Assembly: GCA_964355675.1 (NCBI GenBank)
Contig: CAYHEC010000010.1
Coordinates: 41,160 to 105,159 of the forward strand
Reading direction: 5' to 3'
DNA: 64,000 bases
Source: an uncultured Caldithrix sp.
GTDB taxonomy: Bacteria > Electryoneota > AABM5-125-24 > Hatepunaeales > Hatepunaeaceae
In this document: positions 8,852 to 62,134 of the stretch, piece by piece
How the letters are laid out: each line of letters opens with the position of its first letter
How positions within the stretch are numbered: the first letter of the stretch is position 1
Translations under genes and position numbers: made by a program
The notes under the pieces: model-generated
What the model was told of the DNA's origin: nothing
What the model saw: only the letters and a program-made list of their open reading frames with translations
Database searches by the model: none

Positions 8852-8870
8852 AATTGTAATTCCTTCCTTT

Positions 8871-9266
8871 TTATGCGCGTGCGATGATAATTATTCCAGC
8901 CAATATGACGAGAATTCCGGTAGCTTTGATCATATTGAAAGACTCATGAAATAATGGTACTGCCCCGGCTGTTACCAAGACAAAAGTCATTCCAACAAGA
9001 ATCGGGTAACTGGTGCTGATCTCAGCAATGGATAAAACTTTAAACCAGACTAGAGAAGCGATTCCATAGCAAATTATCCCTAAAACGAACACAGGTTGTA
9101 AAGCAAGCCGGAGCGCCATTTCCCAGGCTCCCCCAGAGAGTGTAAAGCCGCCGACCTTCAGCAGACCGTAGCGCATGGTCAAGTTTGCGGCCACGGTCAA
9201 TAAGGCGCTTATTACAATCAGGACGAATATCTGAAGAGTCAACCTATTTCGCCCGGTTTCGAACAT
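8871..9266 (-). CDS. Small 4-TM membrane protein, EamA/SMR-like (ArnE/ArnF-like flippase subunit candidate)
   Basis: Track ORF 8871..9344 overlaps the upstream gene by 100 nt; an internal Met (9266) gives a ~130-aa hydrophobic protein; family assignment is by architecture only. Confidence 0.45.
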   Translation of the reverse strand: MFETGRNRLTLQIFVLIVISALLTVAANLTMRYGLLKVGGFTLSGGAWEMALRLALQPVFVLGIICYGIASLVWFKVLSIAEISTSYPILVGMTFVLVTAGAVPLFHESFNMIKATGILVILAGIIIIARA

Positions 9267-9777
9267 CCCCGCGCAAGCGCGCCGGGACGCCAGCGACAAC
9301 TGCATGAGCTTCGACACTTTTTGTGACGACGGCTCCTGCGCCAATCATTGCATTCTCTCCAATAGTAATGCCTGCCAGAATTACTGCTCCAGAGCCAATC
9401 GAAGCGCCTCTTTTAATTCTTGTGGGAATTACAACCCAGTCAGCCTCAGTCTGAAGTTGTCCCTCGGAAGTAGCGCGTGGAAAAAGATCGTTGATGAACA
9501 TAACTCCGTGTCCAACAAAGACATCATCTTCAATAGTTACTCCTTCGCAGACAAACGTGTGTGAGGATATCTTGCAACGGGCTCCGATAAAGGCGTTTTT
9601 TTGAATCTCGACAAAAGCACCAATTTTGGTTTCATCACCAATTTGGCATCCATATAGATTAACCAGCTCGGGTTGAAATATGCGAACGTCCTTTCCGAGT
9701 ATGACGTTGTTACTTACGGGCATAGATTGACTCCATTGGTTTATAATAAAGTGGTGCACATCTTGTGATGCGCTCAA
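9244..9777 (-). CDS. Hexapeptide-repeat (left-handed beta-helix) sugar N-acetyltransferase (WbpD/WlbB-like)
   Basis: Repeated [LIV]-G-x-x-x-x hexapeptides ('IGAGAVVTKSV', 'IGSGAVILAGITIGENAMIGAGAVV'); ~175 aa; adjacent to DegT and Gfo/Idh/MocA genes. Confidence 0.85.
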   Translation of the reverse strand: MSASQDVHHFIINQWSQSMPVSNNVILGKDVRIFQPELVNLYGCQIGDETKIGAFVEIQKNAFIGARCKISSHTFVCEGVTIEDDVFVGHGVMFINDLFPRATSEGQLQTEADWVVIPTRIKRGASIGSGAVILAGITIGENAMIGAGAVVTKSVEAHAVVAGVPARLRGDVRNRAK

Positions 9778-17437: not shown

Positions 17438-19279
17438 TCAAAATTGTTTGTTTATAAACTGTCTGTGCCACAGCTCGACATTGATCCATTGCCAAATAAA
17501 AAAGGCATTGCTGTTATCACCTTTGCAATAACCATCAAATAGTCGCTTCACTTCAGAAACTTTAAAGTACCCTCTGTTTGCAAATTCTGAACTATTAATC
17601 AATTCGATAACCCAAGATCGCAATGGACCTAAAAACCACTCACGCTGTGGAGAGACTACTGCCCGTTTGCCCGACCAACAGAGTTGCCGAGGCAATTTTT
17701 CAGTCATCGTCCTGCGCAAAAGATATTTACCTAAACCATTCTTGATTCGTAAATGACCTGGTAAGCGAAACAAATACTCTACGATTCGATGATCTAAATA
17801 GGGTTCGCGCAATTCGCGGCTAAATGCCATCGATAACCGATCATTCATGCGCAAAACTCTTGGCAATTTTGTCCAACGCAGGTCACGAAATAATATTCTT
17901 CTTAACGAATCAGGGTATGAGCTATCGAAATTTGGCGCCACCATGCCGTGATCGGCTATATCATTACTTACTCCTTCTGGACGAAGGTGGTTTGTACCGT
18001 CTTGATACACATTTATCCAGCCACCATTGCTGAGGATGGATTTTGCCTGAGATAATTCAGTTTTCCAACTTTTACCCAAGCCACGAAGATTGGCATGAAG
18101 CTCCGCCCATATACGATTATGTATTAAATCTGCAAGATAATAGGGTCTCATATAATTATAGCCTGCCAGCATTTCATCGACTCCCTGTCCTTCGAGCAGT
18201 ACCGTAACTCCCATCTCTTTTGCTAATTTATGTTGATAATGATAGGCTATCGTCGAAACCCCACCGAACGGAGCTTCCTGATGCCACATAACCTCATCGG
18301 CAAGCTTTATCACATCGACTGGGGCGAGCCTTTGGTAATTCCTTTTCCAATTTGAATGAGTTATAATACTATCGGCAAATCCCTTTTCGTCATATTGTGG
18401 ATCATCATATCCGGCTGTAAATGTTTGTATTTCGCCATCTTTATCAATAATATCATCGACCGTAACAAGCAGACTTGCCGAATCCAGTCCTCCACTTAGA
18501 TTAACACCTACCGGGACATCACTTCGCAGGCGCAAACGAACCGAATCATTCAATAACCTACGAAATTCTTTCACGACCTCGTCCTCAGGAGCATTTACAA
18601 TATCTAAGGTTAAATCAGCCAAGTCCCAATATCGACAAATAGTGATTTCGCCATCGTTAACTGTCAGCGTACATCCGGGAGGGAGTACCTTTATCCCAGC
18701 GAAAAAGGTGTCGTCTGAATGATCAAAATAGCCATGTACAAGGTAATCTGCCCAAATTCGATGGTTTGGTTCGGCTTTGAAACCAGAGGCCAGAATTGCC
18801 TTGATTTCTGAGGCAAATAGGAACAAATTACTGTTAACTACATAGTGAAATGGCTTGATTCCAAGACGATCACGCGCGCAAAACAAGCAGTTTTTACGCG
18901 GGTCCCAAATTGCAAATGCAAACATGCCGATAAAGTGGTCAACACATTTTTCACCCCATCGATCGTAAGCGGCTAATACTACTTCTGTATCAGTTGCGCT
19001 TCGATAGGGGTAATCAAATAGTTCTTGTTTTAATTCAATATAATTATATATTTCACCATTCAGTACGATCCATCTTCCACTACGCGAATCTTCCATTGGT
19101 TGACTTCCAGAGGTCGAAAGATCGATGATGCTGAGTCGATTGTGACCCAAGCCAACCCGTCCGTCGTCAGAAATCCATGTTCCGTCTGAATCAGGACCGC
19201 GATGATGTTGAACTTTGACCATCGCCAACAAGTCCGGGAGCCGCCAACCCTTGCCGATTATCCCTGAGATGCCACACAT
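17438..19279 (-). CDS. Asparagine synthetase B-like glutamine amidotransferase (WbpS-like sugar amidotransferase)
   Basis: N-terminal nucleophile 'MCGISG' (class II GATase) plus PP-loop 'LSGGLDSAS'; 613 aa. Confidence 0.9.
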   Translation of the reverse strand: MCGISGIIGKGWRLPDLLAMVKVQHHRGPDSDGTWISDDGRVGLGHNRLSIIDLSTSGSQPMEDSRSGRWIVLNGEIYNYIELKQELFDYPYRSATDTEVVLAAYDRWGEKCVDHFIGMFAFAIWDPRKNCLFCARDRLGIKPFHYVVNSNLFLFASEIKAILASGFKAEPNHRIWADYLVHGYFDHSDDTFFAGIKVLPPGCTLTVNDGEITICRYWDLADLTLDIVNAPEDEVVKEFRRLLNDSVRLRLRSDVPVGVNLSGGLDSASLLVTVDDIIDKDGEIQTFTAGYDDPQYDEKGFADSIITHSNWKRNYQRLAPVDVIKLADEVMWHQEAPFGGVSTIAYHYQHKLAKEMGVTVLLEGQGVDEMLAGYNYMRPYYLADLIHNRIWAELHANLRGLGKSWKTELSQAKSILSNGGWINVYQDGTNHLRPEGVSNDIADHGMVAPNFDSSYPDSLRRILFRDLRWTKLPRVLRMNDRLSMAFSRELREPYLDHRIVEYLFRLPGHLRIKNGLGKYLLRRTMTEKLPRQLCWSGKRAVVSPQREWFLGPLRSWVIELINSSEFANRGYFKVSEVKRLFDGYCKGDNSNAFFIWQWINVELWHRQFINKQF

Positions 19280-19998
19280 TATTTATCTATTCCCAATTTT
19301 TTACGCATTAGGACTTCAACCATTGCCATATCGTTTTCGTCATCGACGCCTACAGAGCGTTCGGGAGGCATTATATAAGGAATAATCTTGTGACCCCAGA
19401 TTGAATTTTCTTCCAGTAGAACATCGCGCCGCGTAAGATAAATTGCACCATTCCGCATATACGCTGGGGGAGAGTAATCTTGTCTTCTTGTGCCCTCTTT
19501 TTCCTCAATACAAAATGGCTGAAGGTATCCTTCTTCGATCTTCTTCATTAACATAGGGTGAACCGAAAATACCTGGACTACGCTAATCACAGAGTCGCCA
19601 TTACCTTGTACACCAAGTTTTATGGCTTCCTCAATATCTTGCACTGTTCGGAAAGGTTCTGTTGGCTGTAAAAGGCATATCCAGTCAAGTCTTTGATTAT
19701 CACGCTGTTCAATGAAATGGGCTGAATGCTGGAGAACGGGTATCATGGGAACTTTATCATGGGACAGCTCTGGTGGCCTAATAAATGGAACAGTTGCCCC
19801 TGCTTCCCTCGATATTTGTGCTATCTCCTGATCATCAGTAGAAACAACAATATCGCAGAAAAGGTGCTTTGCGGCAAGAGCGGTTTCTATGGTATAAACG
19901 ATCATCGGTTTACCGCATACCTCGCGCACATTCTTCCGGTGAACGCCTTTTGATCCACCTCGTGCAGGGATAACTGCCAATATTCTTGGGTCTGCCAT
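19279..19998 (-). CDS. Acylneuraminate cytidylyltransferase family (CMP-nonulosonic acid synthetase, NeuA/LegF/PseF-like)
   Basis: 'ILAVIPARGGSKGVHRKN' signature; canonical ATG at 19998 overlapping the upstream stop (TAATG). Confidence 0.85.
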   Translation of the reverse strand: MADPRILAVIPARGGSKGVHRKNVREVCGKPMIVYTIETALAAKHLFCDIVVSTDDQEIAQISREAGATVPFIRPPELSHDKVPMIPVLQHSAHFIEQRDNQRLDWICLLQPTEPFRTVQDIEEAIKLGVQGNGDSVISVVQVFSVHPMLMKKIEEGYLQPFCIEEKEGTRRQDYSPPAYMRNGAIYLTRRDVLLEENSIWGHKIIPYIMPPERSVGVDDENDMAMVEVLMRKKLGIDK

Positions 19999-21149
19999 TA
20001 GTAGGTAAGTTTTTTGTCGATTTTTAATTCGATTGTAGATAGAATATCAGCGATTCGGTCTCCGGCACAGCCATCGCCGTATAGACTATCTGATGGGTAA
20101 TGTCCATGTGCAAGCTGGTGGGCAATTGCTTCTGTAATCTCTTGATGATCGTATCCGACATCCAACACATTCGAAGCGCGATCCCGACCACCCTGCCGAC
20201 TACCAATATTTACCACAGGAACTCCCAAGAAGGAAGATTCCCGTATTCCAACGCTTGAATTGCCAATTAGACAACGAGCTTGAGTGAGTAGATTCAGAAA
20301 ATCTTCAGGTGGTAAATTCTTATAAAAATATATATTACGAATATCATTTTGCTCGCGGAATAATCTCATCCCTTTAGAGATATGGTCAGAACCTGCGTCA
20401 ACATTGGGCCAGAACCAGAAAGTCGGCAGGTCAAGAGTTTTGACAGCCTTAAGGGTTTCGGTAATTTGAAAGAGCCCCTCATCGACTTCGGTCGTCACCG
20501 GATGTTGCATTACAATCAAATATCCGTTTTCAAGATTGAATGTGTGCCCAACTCCGCCATATTTGACCAAAGGGTTAAAATGCGAAATTGGATTCTTCTT
20601 GACTCGATCAGCCAAATCTATGGATGGACAACCGGTAATGAAAATCGTAGTAGGATCTTCCCCCATTTTTTCCACACGAACTTTGGCTTGAGAGTTAGAA
20701 ACGAAGTGAAAATTTGAGAGTTTGGTTACAGCATGCCGGACTTTCTCATCGATAGAGCCTGTTACTTCCCCGCCTTGAACGTGAGCAACGGTGATATTCA
20801 AATAGGATGCGGCTATAGCCGTTGCGATTGTCTCGTATCGATCTGCAACAGTTACAACAATATCAGGCTTGAGATTATCGAAAATCGTAGCAAGCTCAAC
20901 AACGCCTAATCCGGTTGATTTGGCGGCGGTGACAAGATTCTCACCCTCCAAAACCATATAGACAACGGCGTCGGGTGTAAAGCCATCACTCCGAATAACA
21001 TCGATGACAGGTCCATAACGCTCCAGGAGCGCCGAGGCGCCTACCACCAATTGTAATTTTAAATCCGGATGCAACTGCACAGCCTCCAGAACAGTCTTAA
21101 TACGAGAATAGCTTGGGCGCGCGGTTACAACGATACAGATATTTCGGAT
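19998..21149 (-). CDS. UDP-N-acetylglucosamine 2-epimerase, NeuC/WecB family; 5' end extended beyond the track ORF, candidate ATC start
   Basis: 'HVQGGEVTGSIDEKVRHAVTKLS' core motif; in-frame upstream codons encode 'RNICIVVTARPSYSRIKTVLEAV', which is the conserved NeuC/WecB N-terminus, with no ATG/GTG/TTG between the in-frame TAA TAA (21162-21167) and the GTG at 21080. Confidence 0.8.
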   Translation of the reverse strand: MRNICIVVTARPSYSRIKTVLEAVQLHPDLKLQLVVGASALLERYGPVIDVIRSDGFTPDAVVYMVLEGENLVTAAKSTGLGVVELATIFDNLKPDIVVTVADRYETIATAIAASYLNITVAHVQGGEVTGSIDEKVRHAVTKLSNFHFVSNSQAKVRVEKMGEDPTTIFITGCPSIDLADRVKKNPISHFNPLVKYGGVGHTFNLENGYLIVMQHPVTTEVDEGLFQITETLKAVKTLDLPTFWFWPNVDAGSDHISKGMRLFREQNDIRNIYFYKNLPPEDFLNLLTQARCLIGNSSVGIRESSFLGVPVVNIGSRQGGRDRASNVLDVGYDHQEITEAIAHQLAHGHYPSDSLYGDGCAGDRIADILSTIELKIDKKLTY

Positions 21150-22111
21150 AGTAAAATACCTTTATTAAAATTTGATGTTGAAATAAAAGACATTAGCTTT
21201 TCAGCCATAAATCGCTCTGTCGCATGCATCGACTGCCATGTTGCGCCACCGAGATGAGGTGTGATTAACAAATTCTCATTGGTTCTTGCATAATCGATCA
21301 GTATGTTCGAAGTATCAGTATTTGTTCTTTCCTCTGACAATACATCGAGTGCGGCGCCGGCTAAATGACCAGATTTCAGATGCTCAAGAAGTGCCGGATC
21401 ATCAATAATTGCTCCCCGCGAAGTATTTATCAATAATGATCCTTTGGGTAGCCAATCGAATTCTTCGGAACCGACCATCCCGGATGTATCTGCATTTAAA
21501 GGGACATGGATCGAAAGGACATCACAATTCTGAAAAAGCTCCTTCATGGTGTTATAGCGAACAAGACTGGGATGATTAAAATCCTCAATATCAAAATATC
21601 CAACCGACATCTTGAAAGCTTGCCCGAAACTTGCGACTTGTTTCCCCACTCGACCAAGACCAAGGATGCCAAGCCGTTTTCCAGCTAATTCAATTCCTTT
21701 AAAACGATCGCGATCCCACTGACCTTCACAAACAGAATTGAAGGCTTGAGGTATATTTCTCGCAAGTGAAAGTAATAGCGCCCAGGTATGCTCGGCAGTG
21801 GCGCGAATTGAAGAAAGAAACTCGTACTCACCACGAAGACTTAATACGGTAATCCCCAATTGCTTAGCAGAGTCCATGTCGATATGATCGACTCCGGTCG
21901 TTGGTGTGACTATCACTTTTAGTCTATGCCCTGAAGACATAAGTTCTTTATCAATATTGTGTTTCAGTCGTGTAATTAACACTTCGATAGACGGGATTTC
22001 GGTCAATAGCTCTTGTCTGGTCAGCTCTCCTTCACAATATTCACCCAACTTCTTATAAATATTCTGCGCTTCTGATGAGTAGTCAGACGGTTCAAGATTC
22101 CATATTCGCAC
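21125..22111 (-). CDS. D-isomer-specific 2-hydroxyacid dehydrogenase family (NAD-binding)
   Basis: 'GKRLGILGLGRVGKQVA' Rossmann motif and 'NTSRGAIID' / 'AALDV' catalytic region typical of D-2-hydroxyacid dehydrogenases. Confidence 0.8.
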   Translation of the reverse strand: MRIWNLEPSDYSSEAQNIYKKLGEYCEGELTRQELLTEIPSIEVLITRLKHNIDKELMSSGHRLKVIVTPTTGVDHIDMDSAKQLGITVLSLRGEYEFLSSIRATAEHTWALLLSLARNIPQAFNSVCEGQWDRDRFKGIELAGKRLGILGLGRVGKQVASFGQAFKMSVGYFDIEDFNHPSLVRYNTMKELFQNCDVLSIHVPLNADTSGMVGSEEFDWLPKGSLLINTSRGAIIDDPALLEHLKSGHLAGAALDVLSEERTNTDTSNILIDYARTNENLLITPHLGGATWQSMHATERFMAEKLMSFISTSNFNKGILLSEISVSL

Positions 22112-23118
22112 TATGCGAAGTCCTCTTCAGTTACCGGTCTGTTTTCGAGAACATCGTTCTTCAGTCTGCGTCCAATAATGGTTTCCAATTTGTCGAATCG
22201 CAAGCCTGCTCCGGCTTTCTTTAGAGTAACATCGTTCCTGGCTAAAACGCTCCCGGCTTTAAGATCATGAGAAGCAACCAGACTTTTTGCGAATATACTC
22301 CGAGTGGTTGAAAGCTCTTCGGCTATGGTATTTTTGGTCACGGGATTATTCTGGACCGTTTCGATAAACCTCACACCTGCCACCAAGTCTTTCAATTCCG
22401 AGGTAGTTATCGATGAGGAAACATCGGGGCCAAACATTTCTCGAGATAGGGTCACATGCACTTCAATTAGATCGACGCCGAGCATCGCAGAAGCAATCCC
22501 GGGATAGATTGTACCGCTGTGGTCGGAAAGCCCAACTTTACAACCGTAACGATTTTTATACAGCGGTATCAAATTCAATCCGACCTTTTCGGGAGGCGTA
22601 GGATACATCGATGTGCATTGTAATAAAGTAAGTTCATTCCCAAGAGTCTTGATGTACGATACAATTTCGTCTAATTCGGAAAGAGAACTCATTCCAGTAG
22701 AAATCCAAATTGGTAAAGCGGTGTCTGCCATCAATTGAAGTAGTGGCTTATTGGTGACTTCACCTGAGCCAACTTTCCATGCGGCGACACCGATTTTCGA
22801 GAGCATCTCGGCGGCTTCCATGGAAAAGGGAGAGCTTAAGAACAGCAAATTTTGTTCAACAGCATGTGCATTTAGCCCAAGCCACTGCTCCTGAGTGAAT
22901 TCCATTCGGCGCCAGTAATCATATCTGGTAGAGTCCTGATAACTGAATTTGACCCGCCATGGTTCGCTGGGAGTGCTTTCTGCCGCGGCAATATGCGTTT
23001 GAAACTTTATGCCATCAGCCCCGGTCCGTGCGACCGCATCGATGAAGGCATGGGCTTGGCCAAGACTGCCATCGTGGGTTTGGGAAACTTCGGCGATGAT
23101 CAGGATACTGTTTTTCAT
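22111..23118 (-). CDS. N-acetylneuraminate synthase family (NeuB/LegI/PseI-like nonulosonic acid synthase) with C-terminal SAF domain
   Basis: 'ILIIAEVSQTHDGSL' TIM-barrel start, 'GLSDHSG' metal-binding motif, C-terminal SAF/antifreeze-like domain. Confidence 0.9.
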   Translation of the reverse strand: MKNSILIIAEVSQTHDGSLGQAHAFIDAVARTGADGIKFQTHIAAAESTPSEPWRVKFSYQDSTRYDYWRRMEFTQEQWLGLNAHAVEQNLLFLSSPFSMEAAEMLSKIGVAAWKVGSGEVTNKPLLQLMADTALPIWISTGMSSLSELDEIVSYIKTLGNELTLLQCTSMYPTPPEKVGLNLIPLYKNRYGCKVGLSDHSGTIYPGIASAMLGVDLIEVHVTLSREMFGPDVSSSITTSELKDLVAGVRFIETVQNNPVTKNTIAEELSTTRSIFAKSLVASHDLKAGSVLARNDVTLKKAGAGLRFDKLETIIGRRLKNDVLENRPVTEEDFA

Positions 23119-23124
23119 CGAATA

Positions 23125-24180
23125 TTAATTTAAGCTATCTCTCAAATAACTTTCGAGTGTTTTCTCTATGTCCGGTCGATGCCGTATATTATAGTAATGG
23201 CGCATTTTCAATATCTTCAACTGAAGCGTACTCAAACTACTCAGGATCCGGTAGTGGGTCACAATATCGGCTGAAGCGCCGCTTTGTGCCATGTGGTTTA
23301 TTGCCAATTCAGCAGTCTGGCGAGAGTTCGCTAACAATTCCCATAATGCGATTTTTGCCCAGAACTGTTGACGTTCCCATGAATACTCGGGATTGAGGAT
23401 TTTCCTGATTAGCCACCTGAGCCTTGCTTTCCCTCTTACTTCCTTTATATTCGATACCCATTCCCCAGTTATCGGCTCTTTCTTATAATAGTCAGGAAAG
23501 TACTTTGCCCTTACTCGATTTCCTTCAATCTGTGTAGAGGTCATACTATTTGCTGATAAAGAAACAAGATATAAAGGCTCAGCTATTTCATAACCATTTG
23601 CAACTTGCAATATTCTTATCCAGAGCGGTACATCACCCATAGTAAAATCTGTATCATAACCACCGACGCTCAAAGCTACTTTCCGGTCGAAAATCACTGT
23701 AGCATCACCAAATCGGCGTCTTTTGAAAAATTGTCCAGTTAACATTTCGACACTAAGTTTTCTGGATTTAAATCTATTCTGAAAGACCTCTTCAAAAATA
23801 TGATTAAAAGGGGTTAAATACATAAAGCCAGTACCGACCATTTTATATTCGGGATTTTCTTTTAAGAATGACATTTGTTTTTCGATTCGGAGTGGGAAAC
23901 TAATATCATCAGCATCCATTCGTGCAATCCACTCCGTTGTAGCATTATCCAAACCCCATTGTAAAGCTCCCTGAAATCCAACGGGACCCAATTCAAATAC
24001 TTTTACACGGTGATCTGTTAAGAAAGTGCGGGCAATTTCGGCAGTGTTATCCGATGATCCGTTCTCTAAAACCCATAATTCAAAATCAGAGAAGGTCTGA
24101 TTAAGAATACTCCGAATCGCTGGGCGTATCGTGGATTCGGCATTATGGGCAGGAAGGAAAACTGTTAATGCAGAATTAAT
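23125..24180 (-). CDS. GT2-family glycosyltransferase; conserved N-terminus lies upstream of the track ORF, candidate ATT start
   Basis: Track ORF starts at TTG 23991 inside the domain ('RMDADD' follows); in-frame upstream codons encode 'LTVFLPAHNAESTIRPAIRSILNQTFSDFELWVLENGSSDNTAEI' (GT2 N-terminal motif) back to TAA at 24241-24243, with no ATG/GTG/TTG. Confidence 0.65.
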   Translation of the reverse strand: MNSALTVFLPAHNAESTIRPAIRSILNQTFSDFELWVLENGSSDNTAEIARTFLTDHRVKVFELGPVGFQGALQWGLDNATTEWIARMDADDISFPLRIEKQMSFLKENPEYKMVGTGFMYLTPFNHIFEEVFQNRFKSRKLSVEMLTGQFFKRRRFGDATVIFDRKVALSVGGYDTDFTMGDVPLWIRILQVANGYEIAEPLYLVSLSANSMTSTQIEGNRVRAKYFPDYYKKEPITGEWVSNIKEVRGKARLRWLIRKILNPEYSWERQQFWAKIALWELLANSRQTAELAINHMAQSGASADIVTHYRILSSLSTLQLKILKMRHYYNIRHRPDIEKTLESYLRDSLN

Positions 24181-24250
24181 TTCTAATTCTCTGACCGAAC
24201 GAGGTTCAAATTGAATATTCGAAGAACTGAATATGAAGCCTTAAAATCAA

Positions 24251-33137: not shown

Positions 33138-34116
33138 TCGTTCGTTGTAAACCGTCTTTAAAAGAAATAAACTGCTTTATTTTAAATTCATTACACACTT
33201 TGCTTACGTCAAGCTTTACGATGCCCGGGGCATCCTTCATCATCTTTCCCGTGCCAGCTTCGCACGTTGCTCCATATACTTCAGCAATTAACTGGGCCAT
33301 TTCGTAAATAGATACGGTTTCTGTTGCCCCGACGTTATATAGTAACTCTTTTCCTTCAAGCATTATCTTGAACATCATAAATAGTGCGTCTGAAATATAA
33401 CAATACGAACGAAGATCTTTTCCTTCATCCATTAGTTTGATGTGCTTATCAATAAAGGCTTTTTTCATAAAGTTGCCCATCGCCCGTTCATCATGGATTG
33501 AAAGACCAGGTCCATAGACTAAGGCTACGCGTGCGATCTTGGCATCTACACCAAACTTTCGATTATAGATAAAGCACAGCGCTTCCCCGACTTTTTTAGA
33601 CTCAATATAAGAGGCTCTGCCACTTGAAGTCAGGGAATTTCCTGGATATGATTCCTTCGTCGGTATTTCATTCGGAGGCGGGTTTCCATAAACTTCACTG
33701 GTGCTAAGGAGAAGAAATTTTGCGTTATTTGCCTTGCTGATATCTAATAGGTCTTTGGTAGCGTTTACATTCAGTGAGATAGTTTTTAGTTCATCCCCCA
33801 AGAACATTTTTGGCCCGCTATAACAGGCGGAATGAATTACGAAATCAACAGGATGTGAAAATGAGAAGGGTTGTGAAAGGTCATGAGTGATATAATTAAA
33901 TCTATCATCCTTCCATACCGGAGGATTCTTACTGACACAATGTGCCATAATATTCGCATTATAATATTCATTAGCAGTACTTAACAAGTTCACTATGTAA
34001 TTTCCAATAAGTCCGTTACTGCCTGTTACGAGAAAACGTTTATCGAACAGTGCTTCGAAGTTGCCAAAATTCGTTAGCAGGTTTCGGCAATCTTCTCTAA
34101 TCAAGGTTGAATTCAT
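33100..34116 (-). CDS. NAD-dependent epimerase/dehydratase (UDP-glucuronate decarboxylase-like SDR)
   Basis: 'FLVTGSNGLIGNYI' Rossmann motif and 'YIESKKVGE' YxxxK motif; start taken at internal Met 34116, giving an ATGA stop/start overlap with the upstream gene. Confidence 0.7.
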   Translation of the reverse strand: MNSTLIREDCRNLLTNFGNFEALFDKRFLVTGSNGLIGNYIVNLLSTANEYYNANIMAHCVSKNPPVWKDDRFNYITHDLSQPFSFSHPVDFVIHSACYSGPKMFLGDELKTISLNVNATKDLLDISKANNAKFLLLSTSEVYGNPPPNEIPTKESYPGNSLTSSGRASYIESKKVGEALCFIYNRKFGVDAKIARVALVYGPGLSIHDERAMGNFMKKAFIDKHIKLMDEGKDLRSYCYISDALFMMFKIMLEGKELLYNVGATETVSIYEMAQLIAEVYGATCEAGTGKMMKDAPGIVKLDVSKVCNEFKIKQFISFKDGLQRTIEWNLNQGAINE

Positions 34117-35006
34117 ATTAGCCGTTCGATTTTGTTTTTTATTCCTGGCGCATCCAAGCCCAAGGCAGAACAATGCTGCTCATAGCTTCCATAGTTTGTC
34201 AGGAATTTGTCTTCTATCCCCAAACGAAACTGCCGGACATTTTCAAGACCTTCAAGCGCTCTGGACACTTCATCACCAAGTCCCCCGATAATGTTATGTT
34301 CTTCGATGGTTAGCACCTTGCCAGTTTTAATAGCGCTTTGCCTTATAAGCTCAATGTCCAGTGGTTTGATCGTATGAATGTAAATAATTTCTGCATCCAT
34401 TAATTTCGCTACTGTGATAACATCTTTAAGTTGAGGCCCCGTAACAATGATCGAAAGAGATTTACCTTCTTTAATCTTAATGCCTTCGCCAACCTTTATC
34501 TGGATCGAATCAAATTGAACGCCATGTTTTACCGCGGGTAATCTAAAATAGGTTGGATTGCAATTATTGTAAGTTTGTTTAAAAAGTTCATCGAACTCAA
34601 GCTCGGAGGTTGGATATACAATTTGCATCCCAGACAAGGGTTTTAAAATGGCAAAATCCTCATAACAGTGATGAGTACATCCGAGCGAAGCGTAATCAAA
34701 TGCTGAACCGACGCTAATTATGCTGGCGCCTAACTTTTGATAGCAAAGATCTACTTTGATTTGTTCATAACATCTTTCGAGAATGAAAGGCGCAATGCTG
34801 TGCACTACAGGATACATGCCAGTTGCCGATAAACCAGCCGCCATGCTGATAATTGTTTGCTCGCAAATTCCCAAGTTGTAAAATCGTTCGGGATGTTTAT
34901 TTTGAAAATTCCGTAATAGAAATACACTGATATCGCCCATCAATACGACTAATTTTTCGTCAAAATCGCCGACAGCTTCAATTGTCCGAGAAAATTGATT
35001 TCTCAC
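34113..35006 (-). CDS. Transketolase, C-terminal (pyrimidine-binding) subunit of a split transketolase
   Basis: Pyrimidine-binding and C-terminal regions recognisable; ~300-aa size typical of split TktB-type subunits. Confidence 0.8.
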   Translation of the reverse strand: MRNQFSRTIEAVGDFDEKLVVLMGDISVFLLRNFQNKHPERFYNLGICEQTIISMAAGLSATGMYPVVHSIAPFILERCYEQIKVDLCYQKLGASIISVGSAFDYASLGCTHHCYEDFAILKPLSGMQIVYPTSELEFDELFKQTYNNCNPTYFRLPAVKHGVQFDSIQIKVGEGIKIKEGKSLSIIVTGPQLKDVITVAKLMDAEIIYIHTIKPLDIELIRQSAIKTGKVLTIEEHNIIGGLGDEVSRALEGLENVRQFRLGIEDKFLTNYGSYEQHCSALGLDAPGIKNKIERLI

Positions 35007-35827
35007 TCCAATTCCTTCAGGATGACCTTTAATTCTTCCTCAGTTGGGCTCCTGTGGTGCCAAGTGAAGCCGTTGTTTTCCAAAGTCTTCGATCCTTTCC
35101 CTTTTACCGTGCGAGCGATTACCATTGAAGGTCTATCCGTTTTACAGTTTGAAATAGTTCTAAAGGTTTGTTTCAGCTCATTGATATCATGGCCGTTGAC
35201 ATCATAGACTTTCCAGCCAAACGCTGACCATTTTTCGACCGGGTTAGTAATTGGCAAGCACCTGCTGGTTGATTCATTCAAATCTAAAATTCCAATAAAA
35301 TTATTCAATTTACAATTTGCGGCAACCATAGCGGTTTCCCAGATAGTTCCTTCGTTACACTCTCCATCACCGATCAGAGAATAAACATAATTGGGTTTAC
35401 ATTTTATTTTCATGCTTAACGCGATACCGGCAGCGAATGGAAAACCGTGTCCGAGGGATCCAGTGGAAGCCTCGACTCCCGGAACTTTGTTTCTATCGGG
35501 GTGTCCGCCGAGTGGGCTGTCATATTTACCGAAAGTGATAAGATCATTCTCGGAAATATATCCTGCCTTTTGTAATACCGCATACAAAGCAACGGAAGCA
35601 TGACCTTTACTGAGAATAAAATAATCTCTATCCTCCCAATCCGGGTTTTCCGGGTGATATTTCAGCACATCCTTATAGAGAACAGTCAGTATATCCACGA
35701 TCGAGAAAGAGCTGGGGATATGACCTTCTTTTGCTTCAAAACACAATTTCAGAATTGATTTTCTGATTTCGATTGGATTTATCATTTTAGAGCAATATTT
35801 GGAAAACCGTGAGCGTTTACGGACCAT
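35003..35827 (-). CDS. Transketolase, N-terminal TPP-binding subunit
   Basis: 'GHASVALYAVL' and TPP-binding 'GDGECNEG' motif; overlaps partner subunit by 4 nt. Confidence 0.85.
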   Translation of the reverse strand: MVRKRSRFSKYCSKMINPIEIRKSILKLCFEAKEGHIPSSFSIVDILTVLYKDVLKYHPENPDWEDRDYFILSKGHASVALYAVLQKAGYISENDLITFGKYDSPLGGHPDRNKVPGVEASTGSLGHGFPFAAGIALSMKIKCKPNYVYSLIGDGECNEGTIWETAMVAANCKLNNFIGILDLNESTSRCLPITNPVEKWSAFGWKVYDVNGHDINELKQTFRTISNCKTDRPSMVIARTVKGKGSKTLENNGFTWHHRSPTEEELKVILKELE

Positions 35828-39088: not shown

Positions 39089-39970
39089 TTAGTTTTCCAC
39101 ATCATAAGTACTCAGTATATTTTCTAATTCTGATAGAAGTTGTCGTAATGAATCGAGAGAGTCATAACGAAGACTTATGCGGTTTTTAAAGATGTGGACA
39201 GAATCATTAGCTTTGGCGAATTGTTTTAGTTCGGGCAGGACATCCCATTTCTCGTTTGGGTTCCTCTTTTGTTTGCGACGGATAATTTCGTCATCGATCA
39301 ATTGCTTGAATTGCTCCAAGTCAAGGCTGGCGCCTCTCAAGATCAGCTTTGCCCTAAGGCGCTCAATAGGAATCTTCGATAATGCCAGCGCTTTCTTCAA
39401 TGAAAGGGTCTTGTCGGCGATTGCCTTTTTCAGGTCCGCTGGTAGAAGCAAGAGTGATAAGCGATCATTCACAAAAGACGCAGACTTACCGATTTTGGTG
39501 GCAATATCCCGGTAGGTTAATCCAAGTTGTTCGATTAATTGCTTGATGGCTCTGGCTTCCTCCATCGGTTCCAAGTCAGAGCGTTGCAAGTTCTCTATCA
39601 GGGAATATAGAAGGAAATCTTCTTGTGACAGATCTAACACAATACAAGGAACAGCTGTCAATTCTGCGCGCTTGGCCGCTTCCAATCTACGGTGACCAGC
39701 AATCAGAATATAGTGCTTGCGACCTTTGCGAATAACCAGCAAAGGCTCAAGGACCCCAACGTCTTTTATTGAGGCGGTGAGCTCATCAAGCGAGCGTTGG
39801 TCGTTCTCAACCCGTAGTGGAAATGAATTGGGGTAAAGAAATCCAATCGGCATCAGTTGGGCGTTCTGAAGAGGTTCAGGTTTGTTCGATGGAAGAGTTT
39901 GACCGAACGCTTCATGAAGTTCAGGCGCCTGCAGACCTATTGCAGGATTGTTATCAGGGTCGTAAGGCAA
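39089..39970 (-). CDS. ParB/Spo0J-family protein (ParB N-terminal CTP-binding domain + HTH), orphan
   Basis: 'LEPLLVIRKGRKHYILIAGHRRLEAAKRA' (GxRR box) and HTH-like 'LTYRDIATKIGKSASFVNDRLSLL'; no ParA gene in the window. Confidence 0.8.
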   Translation of the reverse strand: MPYDPDNNPAIGLQAPELHEAFGQTLPSNKPEPLQNAQLMPIGFLYPNSFPLRVENDQRSLDELTASIKDVGVLEPLLVIRKGRKHYILIAGHRRLEAAKRAELTAVPCIVLDLSQEDFLLYSLIENLQRSDLEPMEEARAIKQLIEQLGLTYRDIATKIGKSASFVNDRLSLLLLPADLKKAIADKTLSLKKALALSKIPIERLRAKLILRGASLDLEQFKQLIDDEIIRRKQKRNPNEKWDVLPELKQFAKANDSVHIFKNRISLRYDSLDSLRQLLSELENILSTYDVEN

Positions 39971-40418: not shown

Positions 40419-43400
40419 ATGAAAACGATCACTGGAATGCTACTCGCAGTAGTTCTTGTTTTGGTGGTGCCGCAGTTCGGTTTCGCCAGAATAATCAACG
40501 TCCCCGAAGAAAATCAGACTATTCAGGCGGCTATTAATACTGCAGAAGCAGGAGATACCGTTCTGGTTCAGCCGGGAATATACGGTGAAAATATTCTTTT
40601 TAACGGAATCGATATTGTCGTTGGCAGTCTGCTCCTGACGACCGGCGATCATGCTTATATCGACTCGACAATTATTGATGGAAACGCCAGCGCATCGGTT
40701 GTTAGAATCCGTACTGGTGAAACTGATGCTACTGTATTAACAGGCTTTACGATTATTAACGGCAGAGCAAATTATGGCGGCGGAGTTTATATTAACGCCG
40801 CCAGCCCGACACTCGATCATCTCATTATAACTCGAAATCACGCGATCAGAGACGGCGGCGGGATTTACTGCACGCATAACGCCAATCCCATTTTTAAACA
40901 TTTGACCGTGTCAGCCGATACTGCCGAACGGAGTAACGGCGGTCTGTTTACCTTTGATAATTCTTCAGCCACTATAATCAACTCCATCTTCAGGAGTAAC
41001 ATCCCTATCGGAACTCCTGCAGGACAAACGATTACCTTTTCCAACATTCAAAATGGTTACGCCGGACAGGGCAATATAAACAGTAATCCCCTCTTCGTCG
41101 ATCCGGGAAATGGTAACTTCCATCTGCAAGAAAATTCGCCGTGTATCGACGCTGGCGATCCGAATTCGCCTCCCGATCAAGATGAGTCTCGCGCTGATAT
41201 AGGGGCTTTTTATTTTGACCAGACTCCCTATCCGCGTATAGTTGCCTCGCATGACTCATTGGACTTCGGAGGCGTTCTTCCCGGTGCAGAACTTGCCAGA
41301 ATAATTACAATTATTAATCAAGGCGACGCCGACCTAATCGTTCAGCATCCCACGACCGACGGCGAACCTTTCCATGCCGATCCGGAGGATTGGGAGTCCG
41401 TTACTCTCGAACCGTTAGATACGCTCGAAGCCGAAGTTTTTTTCGCTCCAACCGAAATCGGGGATTTCGTGGGGCATTTCATCATCGAATCAAATGACCC
41501 TGATAACGAGACTCTTGATATAATACTCATCGGAAGTGGTGCTGTCCCGATCATAGCCGTAGCTTCTGATTCGCTTGATTTTGGTGTTGTTTTAATTGAT
41601 AATAGCTCCGAACTGCCTCTCGTCGTGAGCAATAATGGGGGAGCCGATCTGACAATAAGCGACGCCAGCGTTCAAGGAGATAACTACTCGATTGATTTTG
41701 GTGGTGAGTTTACCGTTCATCCCGATGAATCTGCTGAGATAATTGTCACATTTTCCCCGTCAGAAGCAGGCGGCTTCGATGGGGAAGTCACGATCACTTC
41801 TGATGATCCAGAGAATGCCGAAATGACTGTGGCCCTGGTCGGAGTCGGCAGAGAGCGAACCATCACAGAATTAGGGGCAATCGATACGCCGGGACAAGCG
41901 CTGGGAGTTGCTATCGTTGGATCTCTTGCACTCTTGTCCGACGGTCAGGGCGGTCTTCGAATAATCGATTATTCCGATCCTGCTAATCCTGCCGAAATTA
42001 GCTCCATCGAAACGCCGGGCAACGCCAGAGATATTGTTGTAGTAAATGGTTTAGCTTTTATCGCTGATGAGGAAAGCGGGCTGAGGATGATTGATTTCTC
42101 CGATCCCGAGCATCCTGCCGAAGTCTGGACGTTCGACACGCCCGGTCGGGCTTATGGAGTTGCGGTTGTTGGTTCGTTTGCTTATGTAGCCGATTACGAG
42201 GGAGGGCTCCGTATCGTAGATATTTCTGACCCCGAATCTCCCCATGAAGTAGGGGCATCCGAAACGAACGGCAATGCTCGAGCGGTAGCCATACTCGGTG
42301 ATTATGCGTACATAGCCGCGGAAGAGGGTGGCTTGGAAATAATCGATATTTCTGATCCGGAAAGTCCCCACCGAATTGGTTCTGTCGAAACTCCGGGGAG
42401 TGCCTATGGAATTATAGCTCGGGGAGGTTATGTTTATGTGGCCGATGGAGATAATGGTCTTTGTGTGATCGATGTTTCCACACCTGCTAACCCATCAGTA
42501 ATTACCAGCTACAACACGCCGGGGATTGCGTCCAACGTCACATCGACAGGTGAATTGATCTACGTTGCTGATTCGACCACTGGTATTCAAGTGATTAATA
42601 TAGCTGATCTTGAAAATATTGAAACGGTTGGTACATTCAACACGCATGCCGAAGCTTGTGATATTGCCATTCTTGGCGACTACTGTTTCGTCGCCGATGG
42701 AGAAAGCGGACTTCATGTATTGGACGTCTCGGAGATTGCTCAATACCCGGTTGTTTCCGTCACCCCAGAGGCGCTGAGGTTTCAGCGTACCGTTACCGGC
42801 TATAGTTCAGATATCACGTTGACAATCCATAATCGCGGTAATTGTACGTTGAATATTTTCGCGGTAGCGGTCGAGGGAAATTACTTCGAAAGTGAAATCG
42901 CAAATCCGGTGGCGATTGAGCCAATGGAGAGCTATGATTTGGCAGTTACTTTCACTCCGGAAGAAGCCGGCGATTTTGCTGGAACGCTAACAATTATTTC
43001 GGATGATCCATACCAACCTCACAAGCAAATCTCGTTGTCGGGAAGCGGGCTGGTCTTTGATCTTATCGAAGAGACCGGTTCACTCTTAGAGTTTTTCGCC
43101 GGAACTGAAGATGGATGCGCGTATGACAACTGGGTAAGCCATATCTCCGAGGGGGTTGCCCGAGACGGTTACAACGAATACTGTCCTCCGGAACTTGACC
43201 GGCAGACGAACGGCTTCGGCTCATTTACGATAATCGATAGTCTCGAAAATCCGGACGAAATAACCGCGAGTTGGTATGAGATATTTTCCAGCCTGTATCA
43301 TGGGGACATCGAAACCGCACGCGTAACCCTTGCTCTATCAAGTTTCAGCGATAAGTATCAGATAGTTCGTCTCGAAGATGGTGAGAAGAACTATGTAATC

Positions 43401-46400
43401 TTGAGAGAAAACCTGAATAATGAATACTTTGATGACAATGGTACTCAGGACGCCGCCGATGACGTTCGCGGGTCGTTCGACTTGGGATGGGGGTTGTTTG
43501 TCTTCGATCTTGACCCTTTCACGCCGGATGTTATCATCGAAGTACCTCACCCGGAAGACGATTTTCTTGCTCCTCCATCTGGGATCGATGCATTTTTTAC
43601 GATTGGCGCGAGAGCGCTCTTCGTAGCAGGAGCCGGTCGTGAAGTCAGCTGGACCGGTGAGGGAAACTATACAAATCTGAAGTCATTTTCAGATCCTACA
43701 CGCATTGAGGGTAGTGCTTTCAATCAAGCACATAAAGCGGGGGTGGACTTGATTGATCAGGAATTTGTCATCCAGATTCACAGTTACGACAGCGAATCGC
43801 ATCCCACTTTGATGCCCGCCGAACTTTCCACACGGCTCGACTACTATCCTAATCGCCCAGTTCTGGATTTTGAGAATCACTTCGATATCGTAAGTCTCAC
43901 GCCGGAGATTCCGGTTCCCGCCAATTCAACTGGACATGAAAACCACGATTCGCTACGGGTCGATGATTTCTATGCTGTCTGGTATGATATCGACGTCTTA
44001 GGTACTTATCGCTATCACAATCGCTTGGATATATCGAACGACGTGGTGATGTTCGCATCGAGCATGAATGAACAGATGCTTTACTCGATGGCTGGCCATG
44101 ATACTCTGCGGGACGATGAAAAATGGCTTCATGTCGAACAGGACGAATTTCCAAATGTCATTACTGAGGATATTCTAAACTATTATAGCGCTGGCGGAGC
44201 TATGACCTACCATAATTTCAGCCCAGCAGTTCAGTTTTACCGCCCGGTGTACACGGCGGTAAGAAACTATTACCATCATAGAACCCTGCATAACGTTCCT
44301 GATGATTATCAGACAATCCAGGCCGCTGTTGACGCTTCAGTCAGTGGAGACACAGTGCTGGTTCAGCCCGGGACTTACGTTGAAACCGTCAACTTCAAGG
44401 GCAAAGACATCACGGTGGGAAGCCTCTTCCTGAACACCGGAGACCAAGCCTACATAGAATCAACTATCATAGATGGCAACCGCAACGGCAGTGTGGTGAG
44501 ATTTGACAGTGGTGAGACCAATAATGCCTTGTTGACCGGATTCACTATTCGAAACGGTTCCGGTTCCATCGATGCTGAAAATGACATCAGCGGCGGGGGG
44601 ATACATTGCCACAACGCATCGCCCCGTCTGAATTATCTCAAAATTGTTAACAATAATGCCTGGTATGCCGCGGGTATTTATTGCGAATTAGGTTCCGATG
44701 CGATTATCGATCATTGTCTGATTACTAACAACGTCGCCGCTATTGCTGGTGGTGGTATGGATTGCTATGCCGCCAGCCCCACCATGAGCAACTGTACCAT
44801 TGCGGATAATCAGGCAATCAGGGGAGGCGGGCTCTACCTATTCGATGGCTGTAATCTGACTATTACGAACAGTATCTTCTGGAATAACGCTCCGCAAGAA
44901 CTTCTTTATTCACTTAGCGGAGTTCCCGATACGGTTATATTTCAGTACACTGACATTATGGGTGGTGAGCGTCGAGTCAACACTCACCGTAACGGCGCTG
45001 TCATCTGGGGAGAAGGCAACATCGATCAGGATCCCCGATTTGTTGCCCCTGAGGAGGGTGACTACTCTCTAAGCGAAGGAAGCCCCTGCCAAGACGCCGG
45101 AAATCCTGGCGATACACGTGATCCCGATGACACGTGGATCGATATGGGAGCGCTCTATTCTCCTTATGAGCGAGACAATCAGCCGCGCATGGTTGTTAAT
45201 TCTAATAGATTTGGCTTCGGAACTGTCGAAGTCGGGCAGAACCTTCACTTGATATTGCAGATTCACAACACGGGCTATGCCGCTCTTACGGTTTCAGAGA
45301 TGAGGCTATCAGGAGATCATCCCGACGACTTCAGCGCAGACTTCGGACAGGAGTTAACGGTCGATCCCGGTCAGATTCGCAACGTCACATTGACATTTGC
45401 CCCCGGCGATGCAGGTCGTCGAGAAGCCAATATGGTCGCCACAAGTAATGATCCGGTGCAGGCAGAGACTCAAATGGCACTTGGTGGATTCGGATTAATC
45501 CGTGGAGATCGTCATTTATGGATTGTTCCGGATGACCTTGAAAGAATTCAGGAAGCTATTGATATATCAGTCGATGGCGATACTATTCTCGTTAGATCGG
45601 GTGTTTACCAGGAGAATATCGATTTTTCGGGCAAAGCGCTTGTAGTAGGTAGCTTCTTCCTGACCGATCGTGACCCGGAATTGATCACAAATACCGTTAT
45701 CCGAGGCGACAACAGCGGCGGAGTGGTTTCTTTCATCAGCGGAGAGGATACGAACTCTGTATTATCAGGATTCACAATAACGGGTGGGCAAGATGGAGTT
45801 TACAGCGCGTCTTCAAATCCAACTATAAGTTATTGTGTTATAAATAGTAACGCGGCAGTGAACACCGGCGGCGCGGGATTGTACTGCCGCGGTGGCGCTT
45901 CGCCAAGCCTTCTTAACTGTACTTTGGTTGATAATTCAGCTCGATGGGGCGGTGGTATGTACATTCGAGAAGGAAGTGGCGTCACCTTGACCAACTGTAT
46001 TGTTTGGGCAAATGATCCAAACACAGTTTACTCATCGGGTAACGGCGTAAGAAATCGACTTTCGGTGGATCACTCGAATATTGAGGGTGATCGACAGGGG
46101 GTTGTTACCAACAATAATTGTCAGGTCACCTGGGGCGAAGGCAATATCAACACAGATCCTCTGTTTGTTGATTTGGGTAATGGAGACTTCCGTCTGGGAG
46201 CCAACAGTCCCTGCGTCGATGCAGGCAATGCCAATTCGCCGCTCGATGCCGACAGCACCCGCGCCGATCTTGGCGCTCTTTACTATGACCATCGGACGCC
46301 TCGTATCGCTGTGGAGCCTGCCGAGCTCGATTTTGAACTGACAAGAATAGGCGAATTGTCAGAGAAAGAGATAGTTATCTTTAACAGGGGTGTTGCTGAC

Positions 46401-60752: not shown

Positions 60753-61415
60753 TCAGCCATCGCTCATATGCCACCCCTTCTCCATGGCCTTCACAGCCTT
60801 CCCAGGGCAACCAACAACAGTCGTGTTAGGCTCCACTGGATTGATTATGGTGCTACCAGCCCCAATGCGCGACCACTCGCCGATAGGGAGTTTCTCGAGT
60901 ATATTTGCTCCTGTTCCGATGAATGCTCCCTCATTGATACTCACATTTCCCGAAATGTGACATCCAGGTGAGACGGTAACAAAATCCGCGATTGTTGAAT
61001 CGTGCCCGATGGTACAGTCCAAATTGACATGAACATGCTTCCCGATCGTTATGTTCGTCGTGAGAATGCACCCGGCAGTGATGATACTTCCCTCACCAAT
61101 TACCACGCGACGAGTCACTATCGCCCGCGGATGCACGATGGAGCAGTACTTTGCCCCAAGAGTCTCCAACCGCTTGATCATACGATATCTGAGGTCAGGT
61201 GTACCTATCGCGCACGTCAACTCAACCCTGTTGACGTTTTTGGCGATCCACCTTGTATCTCCGAGGATTGGCAGTCCATTTATCAGTGTTCCCGGCGTTC
61301 CATATTGTCCATCAACTATGAACCCGATGCACTCCACCGAATTATCTCTCTCTTGGATGGCTTCGACAACATCAAGGACCTCGCGCGCGAAGCCGCCAGC
61401 GCCAATGATTGCAAT
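60753..61415 (-). CDS. NeuD/PglD-family sugar N-acyltransferase (hexapeptide repeat); N-terminus upstream of track ORF, candidate ATT start
   Basis: Hexapeptide repeats 'IGEGSIITAGCIL', 'IGTGANILEKLPIGEWSRIGAGSTI'; in-frame upstream codons encode 'KQIAIIGAGGFAREVLDVVEAIQ' (NeuD/PglD N-terminal motif) with no ATG/GTG/TTG back to TAG at 61515-61517. Confidence 0.7.
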   Translation of the reverse strand: MAIIGAGGFAREVLDVVEAIQERDNSVECIGFIVDGQYGTPGTLINGLPILGDTRWIAKNVNRVELTCAIGTPDLRYRMIKRLETLGAKYCSIVHPRAIVTRRVVIGEGSIITAGCILTTNITIGKHVHVNLDCTIGHDSTIADFVTVSPGCHISGNVSINEGAFIGTGANILEKLPIGEWSRIGAGSTIINPVEPNTTVVGCPGKAVKAMEKGWHMSDG

Positions 61416-62134
61416 TTGTTTTGGTTTGTTCGTTTTTAATCCATTTGTTTGGTAAACTTCGCAAGTCTGGCATGTTACGCTACATGCTGATTTCTCTGTC
61501 GCAAGGGAAAACTAAAACTCGTTTTTTCATATCAGTAATAATTTGCCATTTAGGTTTTTATTTGCTACTGTCTCGAAGATTATTTTTCGCAAGCTGAATC
61601 TGTTGACAGCAAAATAAGATACACCTGTATTTAGAAAAATCGATTTATAATCAGGTTTTTCGATTTACGAAATTTATTTAGGGTCTGCTGAAAAAGTCTA
61701 GCGACATTCAGGGAGTTGCCCTCGTCTGCTATTCCAGCGTACTTGACCAAACGGCTGACAAGGACATCCGAATGAACTCCATGTGCCGTCACGCGACAGC
61801 TTGGCCCGCCCAGCTATGCTGTGCGGGCTACTCGCCACGATTTTTATCATTTGGAATTTGGGCAATAGCCCCTCTTAGTCTTGCAATAGCATTGCTGATT
61901 CACTATCCTTGACATTGGTGAGGATGAATATTATCTTTGCAGTTTATATGAAGGTTGCGTGATTCTTGGCGACCTGGCAGAATAAGCATCCCGCTTACTT
62001 TCGCAATTGCCGTAAAACAATCTCAGTTAAGACCTGCCAAGAATAGGGTACGGCTTAAATGTAAGAGGAGTTTCCCAACTTATGGAGTTGCAGAAGGAAA
62101 GTAGAAGCCTCGAATCGGTTGAAGCACATTAGGC

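Follow-up and report, generated by a model that had tools for sequence, protein, structure and literature searches.

Here we examine a gene for a NeuC-type sugar-nucleotide epimerase in a 64,000-nt stretch of DNA from an uncultured Caldithrix sp. (contig CAYHEC010000010.1 of assembly GCA_964355675.1; hereafter the window), whose reading frame lacks a canonical start codon at its expected 5' end. On the minus strand the frame is open from 21161 to 19998 and is closed upstream by two in-frame TAA codons (21162-21167). Read from 21167 to 21072, these stops are followed by AGG, TAT, TTT and ACT, then by ATC (21149-47), CGA, AAT, a second ATC (21140-38), TGT and a third ATC (21134-32), and finally by GTT, GTA, ACC, GCG, CGC, CCA, AGC, TAT, TCT, CGT, ATT, AAG, ACT, GTT, CTG, GAG and GCT, before GTG (21080-78), CAG and TTG (21074-72) are reached; in translation, the two stops are followed by RYFTIRNICIVVTARPSYSRIKTVLEAV-V-Q-L. 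Read in frame, none of the 27 codons between the tandem TAA and GTG 21080 is ATG, GTG or TTG, and the first canonical start is GTG 21080 at codon index 27 (codon 28). A first-pass annotation of the window, made from its letters alone, had named both this GTG and the tandem TAA, and proved exact when we re-read the minus strand. We propose a coding sequence of 383 codons at 19998-21149 (minus strand), running from ATC 21149, four codons downstream of the tandem stop, to TAA 20000-19998, with the ATC at 21147-21149 as a near-cognate initiation codon that would yield fMet-R-N-I-C-I-V-V-T. The two other in-frame ATC codons (21132-21140) are possible re-initiation sites, from which the beta1 strand would be shortened. 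Automatic gene callers choose TTG 21074, the second of the two canonical codons at 21072-21080, to give a product of 358 amino acids (P0001).

Judged by its sequence, the product of this frame is an ordinary NeuC/NnaA-type hydrolysing UDP-GlcNAc (or diNAcBac) 2-epimerase, and the unusual part is how its translation would start. Translated from stop to stop, the frame scores 369.8 bits on TIGR03568 (NeuC_NnaA; cut-off 235.9) and covers positions 2-365 of its 365, with profile position 2 falling on the Asn two codons after ATC 21149; PF02350 is matched with E = 2.5e-69. The epimerase domain of human GNE (4zht) aligns with E = 8e-67, GNE residue 11 coinciding with the Asn that follows ATC-CGA, and residue 3 of LegG (5zlr) aligns with the same Asn, so that the Met of 5zlr (residue 1) aligns with ATC 21149 itself. 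The N-terminal segment of 27 codons aligns with GNE residues 11-35, TARPSYS of the window standing against CNRADYS of GNE, and includes the counterparts of Arg19, which stacks on uracil and binds the alpha-phosphate, and of Ser23, which binds the ribose (PMC4793188). The codons that align with these two UDP-binding residues, Arg CGC 21119-17 and Ser TCT 21107-05 (21105-21119, minus strand), both lie upstream of GTG 21080. Further into the protein, the 4zht and 5zlr alignment shows DR, GGE, ID(E/D)..RH and QHP to be conserved, and equivalents of GNE Arg19, Ser23, Asp112-Arg113, GGE, Asp143 and His220 are all found. The gene thus resembles known NeuC, SiaA, LegG and GNE epimerases in its full-length TIGR03568 and PF02350 match, its conserved active-site residues and its NeuB-like and CMP-transferase neighbours; it differs from them in having no canonical start, and its substrate (GlcNAc or diNAcBac) and function are predictions.

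Homologue alignments show the N-terminal segment to be conserved and, by that measure, indispensable. We aligned, with MAFFT, the 119 best non-self proteins from a search of 5.8 billion: every one carries [TS]AR[PA]SY within its first 33 residues, and none of the 119 starts downstream of the TARPSY motif. The motif lies at offset 8 in 48 of these proteins, as it does when counted from ATC 21149, which places their Met exactly at the ATC position, and 383 amino acids is exactly the length of 44 of the top 120 homologues. The window's NeuC keeps all 110 invariant columns, including the 9 upstream of GTG 21080, together with 182 of 185 columns that are at least 95% conserved (98.4%, the level at which the homologues themselves retain them in a leave-one-out comparison); residues 2-24 are 75% identical and the remainder 71%. 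Furthermore, a tblastn scan of representative genomes returned 80 loci, the best 73% identical, and the match reaches query residue 1 or 2 in all but L061, where it begins at residue 9. Orthologue alignment therefore bears out the first-pass proposal that the upstream codons match the NeuC N-terminus, and its further statement that a start at GTG 21080 would delete the first Rossmann strand also stands, beta1 and the equivalents of GNE Arg19 and Ser23 lying upstream in the 4zht alignment. Because beta1 and the UDP-binding Arg and Ser equivalents would be lost, GTG 21080 cannot, on these alignments, be the functional start; because the segment is conserved in all homologues, the called 358-residue product would likewise lack part of the active site.

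To compare candidate codons, we built a position weight matrix of the translation initiation region from 25 clear ATG genes of the window, whose upstream regions are A/T-rich and carry no Shine-Dalgarno (SD) motifs, and ranked candidates among 1413 internal in-frame ATH codons. ATC 21149, which has A at -3, -12 and -13, scores 4.2 and falls in the top 1.6% of these internal codons, whereas ATC 21140 (-1.9) and ATC 21134 (-2.9) are unremarkable and GTG 21080 (-10.8) and TTG 21074 (-8.9) score worst of all candidates. The first-pass annotation had called ATC 21149 the only plausible initiator; it is indeed the best in-frame candidate, coinciding with the modal homologue Met and with 5zlr residue 1 in addition to its favourable context, but initiation at AUC is our deduction and the closest homologues have Ile at this position. 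AUC 21149 also sits within the 7-nt loop of a 9-bp A/U-rich hairpin at 21135-21161 of the minus strand (AGGUAUUUU/ACUAUCC/GAAAUAUCU; centroid -5.4 kcal/mol), a fold no better than that of shuffled sequence (z = 0.2).

We lean towards the view that the gene encodes a functional NeuC/LegG-type 2-epimerase that has no ATG, GTG or TTG start and is weakly translated from AUC 21149, probably with the aid of coupling to the gene upstream. Ribosomes arriving from the upstream open reading frame (ORF) would end 22 nt downstream of AUC 21149 and help initiation there; de novo binding of 30S subunits to the A-rich, unstructured site would add to the ribosomes so delivered; the initiator tRNA would read AUC 21149 as fMet; and the yield of full-length enzyme would be a few percent of that from an AUG. 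We infer that the protein is actually made, that translation starts at AUC 21149 and not at AUC 21140 or 21134, and that coupling contributes to its initiation.

The coupling, which the first-pass annotation overlooked, bears on the mechanism. The gene upstream of NeuC, at 21125-22111 on the minus strand, belongs to the D-2-hydroxyacid dehydrogenase family (PF02826, PF00389), and its stop, TAA 21127-25, lies in a different frame 22, 13 and 7 nt downstream of ATC 21149, 21140 and 21134, respectively; the dehydrogenase gene overlaps NeuC by 25 nt when the latter is counted from ATC 21149 and by 37 nt when its whole open frame is counted. In 11 related genomes NeuC is likewise preceded by this dehydrogenase gene; the stop of the one and the start of the other overlap or lie side by side in 8 of these genomes, with ATGA junctions in L001, L004 and L005, TGATG in L002 and L003, GTGA in L007 and L012, and an 8-nt overlap (ATG..TAA) in L009. 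Such stop/start overlaps are, at the level of gene layout, the classical signature of translational coupling, though the window's own dehydrogenase/NeuC junction holds no canonical restart codon. Our case resembles termination-reinitiation of the M13 gene V-VII type (PMC2268962) in the ATGA, GTGA and TGATG junctions of the relatives, in the dehydrogenase stop lying inside the 5' end of NeuC, and in the stop of NeuC itself overlapping the ATG of the next gene (TAATG); it differs in that the restart codon would be an AUC 22 nt (or 13 or 7 nt) before the stop instead of an overlapping AUG or GUG, re-initiation on AUC being a proposal made here.

Gene content marks the NeuC locus as a nonulosonic-acid operon, set in a very large glycan-biosynthesis region. 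NeuC shares one operon with a NeuB-family nonulosonic-acid synthase at 22111-23118 (minus strand; PF03102 and a SAF domain; TIGR03569 at 287 bits, below its cut-off) and a CMP-nonulosonate cytidylyltransferase-like gene at 19279-19998 (minus strand; PF02348; TIGR03584 at 163 bits, below its cut-off), and an AsnB-type amidotransferase gene follows at 17438-19279; these three flanking genes all keep ATG starts. The arrangement departs from the textbook Neu and Leg pathways in the dehydrogenase gene interposed within it. A relative of the AsnB protein in the same 90% cluster differs by 1 residue and comes from the same population.

NeuC is not alone in lacking a canonical start. The first-pass annotation had stated that two other genes of the window share the pattern, and profile positions confirm this for a GT2 glycosyltransferase and a NeuD-like acetyltransferase; in the latter, however, the codon homologous to Met is ACG and not ATY. 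The GT2 gene (23125-24180, minus strand) has ATT 24180-78 as its candidate start within an ORF that is open from 24240, while its first canonical start, TTG 23991, comes only at index 83; position 1 of the Pfam GT2 profile lies at codon index 25 of ORF 23125-24240. The Met residues of 119 GT2 homologues fall at index 17-20 (59 at 18, 27 at 19 and 8 at 20, the index of ATT 24180), and all 19 columns of at least 95% conservation upstream of TTG 23991 are kept. The NeuD/PglD-family sugar N-acetyltransferase gene (60753-61433, minus strand; ORF 60753-61511) offers two candidates, ACG 61433-31 and ATT 61415-13, both upstream of its first canonical start, GTG 61337 (index 58). Its frame matches TIGR03570 with 201.7 bits (cut-off 160.8), profile position 2 coinciding with ATT 61415 at index 32. 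The closest homologue, P0365 (73% identical), begins ATG, AAA, GAG, AAG, AAA, CAG, ATC where the window reads ACG, AAC, AAA, CCA, AAA, CAA, ATT; the ATG of P0365 thus aligns with ACG 61433, which would be the homologous Met codon. Both ACG 61433 (4.7) and ATT 61415 (6.7) score in the top 1% by the same matrix. Among columns of at least 95% conservation, these two genes keep 51/52 and 11/11. Coupling cannot account for all three genes: the NeuD-like gene is the first of its transcription unit, and the GT2 candidate is found 71 nt downstream of the stop before it. RNA structure prediction and Rfam searches around the starts of all three genes gave nothing significant, and a scan for promoters and terminators was uninformative. 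Just upstream of the NeuD-like candidates, an out-of-frame mini-ORF (ATG GAT TAA, 61436-61444, minus strand) stops short of ACG 61433 by 2 nt and of ATT 61415 by 20 nt; a role as a start-stop or re-initiation element is conceivable, as is chance.

A search for further genes of this kind took in the other ~52 genes encoded by the window together with ~16 kb of flanking sequence (10 kb on the left from L087, 5.8 kb on the right from L093), and found none: all other window genes that begin with TTG or GTG fit their canonical starts when checked against Pfam and NCBIfam coordinates. The contigs of relatives identified through a ParB-like gene of the window (L089, 50% GC; L092, 56% GC) likewise contain no gene lacking a canonical start, the ParB relatives being at most 68% identical and their contigs too distant. 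A borderline fourth case is offered by a split transketolase at 34113-35827 (minus strand), whose N-terminal part (35003-35827) and C-terminal part (34113-35006) overlap at GTGA; measured against Pfam and NCBIfam, the C-terminal part aligns from 2 codons upstream of its GTG, probably within alignment tolerance. Across window and flanks, the starts chosen by the callers are ATG in 29, TTG in 10 and GTG in 5 of 44 genes (TTG 23%). For a lineage without SD sites this proportion of non-ATG starts is high, and other start codons may be in use in some of these genes as well.

Near-cognate initiation itself is a known phenomenon; the clustering of three cases is the unusual part. In E. coli, the codons AUC, AUU, AUA and CUG support initiation at 1-2% of the AUG level and place Met at the N-terminus, and non-canonical starts account for about 0.05% of annotated genes in model genomes (10.1101/063800); in S. 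aureus the level for AUU and AUA is about 10%, and initiation-site profiling found four non-canonical sites (PMC13009471). Such background rates are under-counted, because gene callers disallow these starts; even at a generous rate of 0.15%, we calculate a Poisson probability of ~1e-4 for at least three such genes in 55. NeuC resembles the documented cases, E. coli infC and pcnB (AUU) and S. aureus infC, ccpN and citZ (AUA) and cvfC1 (AUU), in having a one-base neighbour of AUG at the Met position of its homologues, no canonical alternative and an expected low output. It differs in that cross-species conservation is a feature of the known cases, as is an extended SD of those in S. aureus, whereas the window gene has no strong SD; in that AUC is rarer than AUU or AUA among them; and in that about 2-4 are found per genome, compared with three in about 55 genes here.

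Several observations weigh against initiation at AUC 21149. Closest homologues, at 73-74% identity, have Ile at the ATC position behind a leader of 5-7 residues that contains an ATG: several of these proteins read M-x(4-5)-I-R-K-I-C, L002 has ATC CGA AAG ATC TGC where the window has ATC CGA AAT ATC TGT, and the Met of the homologue forms of 387 and 388 amino acids aligns with the window's second TAA. The mutation of ATG to ATC implied by the first-pass annotation is possible, given that L006, L009, L034, L041 and L052 have ATG CGN AAR at this position, but ATC 21149 may, on the comparison with the closest homologues, instead be an inherited Ile codon that turned into a start after loss of the leader. 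Equally, the window gene may simply have lost its start. The search of 5.8 billion proteins gave a best non-self homologue only 73-74% identical, and no relative is close enough for its start codon to be compared. No strong or extended SD precedes ATC 21149, only AGG 9 nt upstream, although the SD criterion may not apply in an SD-independent lineage. The weight matrix discriminates weakly (leave-one-out mean -0.9 versus background -3.4) and serves as supporting evidence only; by it, the GT2 candidate ATT 24180 scores a poor -5.0. Lastly, coverage is only ~7x (about 6.9x by contig name).

This low coverage invites the explanation that the true base at 21147 is G, the start thus being an ordinary ATG. 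The NeuC start region is, however, 100% identical in ENA ERZ4201063 and ERZ4201064 and in the Logan assemblies of ERR3856787 and ERR3856788, four assemblies that represent two assemblers and two sequencing runs, and an independent Logan contig (L085, ERR3856787) repeats the NeuD-like start region without a difference. An assembly error at the NeuC start is excluded, and a base-call or consensus error is unlikely at this coverage, as judged from the assemblies and not the reads. Three errors would each have had to strike a start codon, and the plus-strand changes involved (C to G, C to A and A to G) share no common error signature; all told, we consider sequencing error very improbable. The first-pass preference for real non-AUG initiation over a single error thus stands as regards error in a single assembly, while initiation at AUC is our favoured reading. 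Taking the sequence as read, the short product of 358 residues could be the real one, begun at GTG 21080 or TTG 21074, the only canonical in-frame starts and, in the case of TTG 21074, the choice of automatic callers. We find this scarcely credible: beta1 and the Arg19 and Ser23 equivalents would be deleted, none of the 119 homologues matches such a start position, conservation is higher over the 23 upstream codons than elsewhere in the protein, and both codons have the worst initiation-region scores of all candidates. NeuC would need no start of its own if ribosomes slipped -1 or +2 from the dehydrogenase into its frame between 21161 and 21125, a stretch of 37 nt that both ORFs share in different frames. 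Yet the overlap holds no X XXY YYZ slippery heptamer, no significant structure follows (z = 0.2), and in the relatives the two genes meet in stop/start overlaps and encode separate proteins. A fusion would also leave the NeuD-like gene unexplained, since no ORF precedes that gene on its strand. Without a slippery site, and with two proteins made in relatives, a frameshift fusion was dropped as barely worth entertaining.

A recent start-loss allele is a serious alternative to translation from AUC 21149, if not a likely one. A point mutation, or a remodelled junction with the upstream gene, would have removed the ATG and left NeuC an untranslated young pseudogene, with the other two genes as further casualties in a dispensable surface-glycan pathway. 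Indeed, the leader Met (ATG) of the closest homologues aligns with a TAA in the window, the ribosome-binding features are no stronger than those of ordinary genes, and all three affected genes belong to glycan pathways, whose genes are often inactivated. Decay could also be read from the GT2 protein, in which a C-terminal motif, GWE...YR..P.S, that is at least 90% conserved in the 119 homologues has undergone W to Y, R to S and P to A changes (23440-23570, minus strand; codon index ~215-235); these may reflect either functional divergence or early decay. Against start loss, the 110 invariant NeuC residues are all intact, its 383 codons contain no frameshift or stop, and the other two genes keep nearly all of their conserved columns; by our estimate, with 0 changes in roughly 250 non-synonymous sites, the gene could have drifted neutrally for no more than about 1% divergence. 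The start codon makes up only a small part of the target for loss of function, and three independent inactivations that each struck only the start codon and left a near-cognate codon behind would be unlikely. NeuB, the cytidylyltransferase and AsnB, moreover, retain ATG. Random inactivation is a poor fit because all three lesions affect only starts, with no frameshift or nonsense mutation, in otherwise intact, conserved genes. It is also conceivable, though we think it rather unlikely, that the host routinely starts on AUC, AUU or ACG: ~5% of the genes in 80 kb, roughly 30-100x the documented rate, would imply either lineage-wide relaxed start-codon discrimination (through changes in IF3, the initiator tRNA or the 30S P-site) or a nonulosonic-acid glycan pathway deliberately tuned down at three separate steps by weak start codons.

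Should NeuC be translated from AUC 21149, gene callers restricted to ATG, GTG and TTG truncate it by 25 residues, the public record of 358 amino acids is a non-functional artefact, and the GT2 and NeuD-like genes are truncated likewise. Three cases in about 55 genes would then be a sign that near-cognate starts are tolerated much more frequently in some SD-independent, poorly sampled lineages than in E. coli or S. aureus, with a bearing on metagenome annotation and on our understanding of start-codon fidelity. Should these instead be start-loss alleles, the glycan pathway would have been switched off purely via its start codons.

The lineage of the host is relevant here. A 2829-residue ORF at 40419-48908 (plus strand) combines LVIVD, ASH/HYDIN-type Ig and DUF1573 repeats with a C-terminal Por_Secre_tail sorting domain of the type IX secretion system (T9SS), and two more proteins with T9SS tails are encoded just outside the window (L087:20431-21452 and L093:12742-14910). 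Such cargo, together with the absence of SD motifs, probably places the organism in the FCB group (Bacteroidota and relatives). Ribosomes of Bacteroidia ignore the SD and use A at -3, -6, -12 and -13 (PMC6847099). The window is similar in that its ATG genes are A/T-rich upstream and lack SD motifs, and ATC 21149 shares A at three of these positions; the comparison is limited in that non-AUG, AUU and GUG starts are not mentioned in that study, which describes selection against extra AUGs near the start, and in that membership of the host in Bacteroidia is not established.

Other features of the window and its surroundings may merit attention in their own right. A ParB/Noc-like gene at 39089-39970 (minus strand) encodes ParB_N and HTH_ParB domains with neither a ParB C-terminal domain nor an adjoining ParA, and neighbours a KpsM/Wzm ABC-2 permease gene; a 57%-identical ParB-like homologue in another metagenome (L089-L091) also adjoins glycan genes (epimerase, DegT, Bac_transf), and the gene may encode a regulator associated with polysaccharide loci. 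Between a hexapeptide acetyltransferase and a GFO/IDH/MocA oxidoreductase, ~390 nt within 8852-9344 (minus strand) contain only an ORF without a family match, 157 amino acids long from a TTG, which is called as 82 amino acids in one assembly and is uncalled in another. Finally, a gene for SelA (selenocysteine synthase) lies at L093:15473-16915, about 5 kb to the right of the window's end, so that the organism probably uses selenocysteine.

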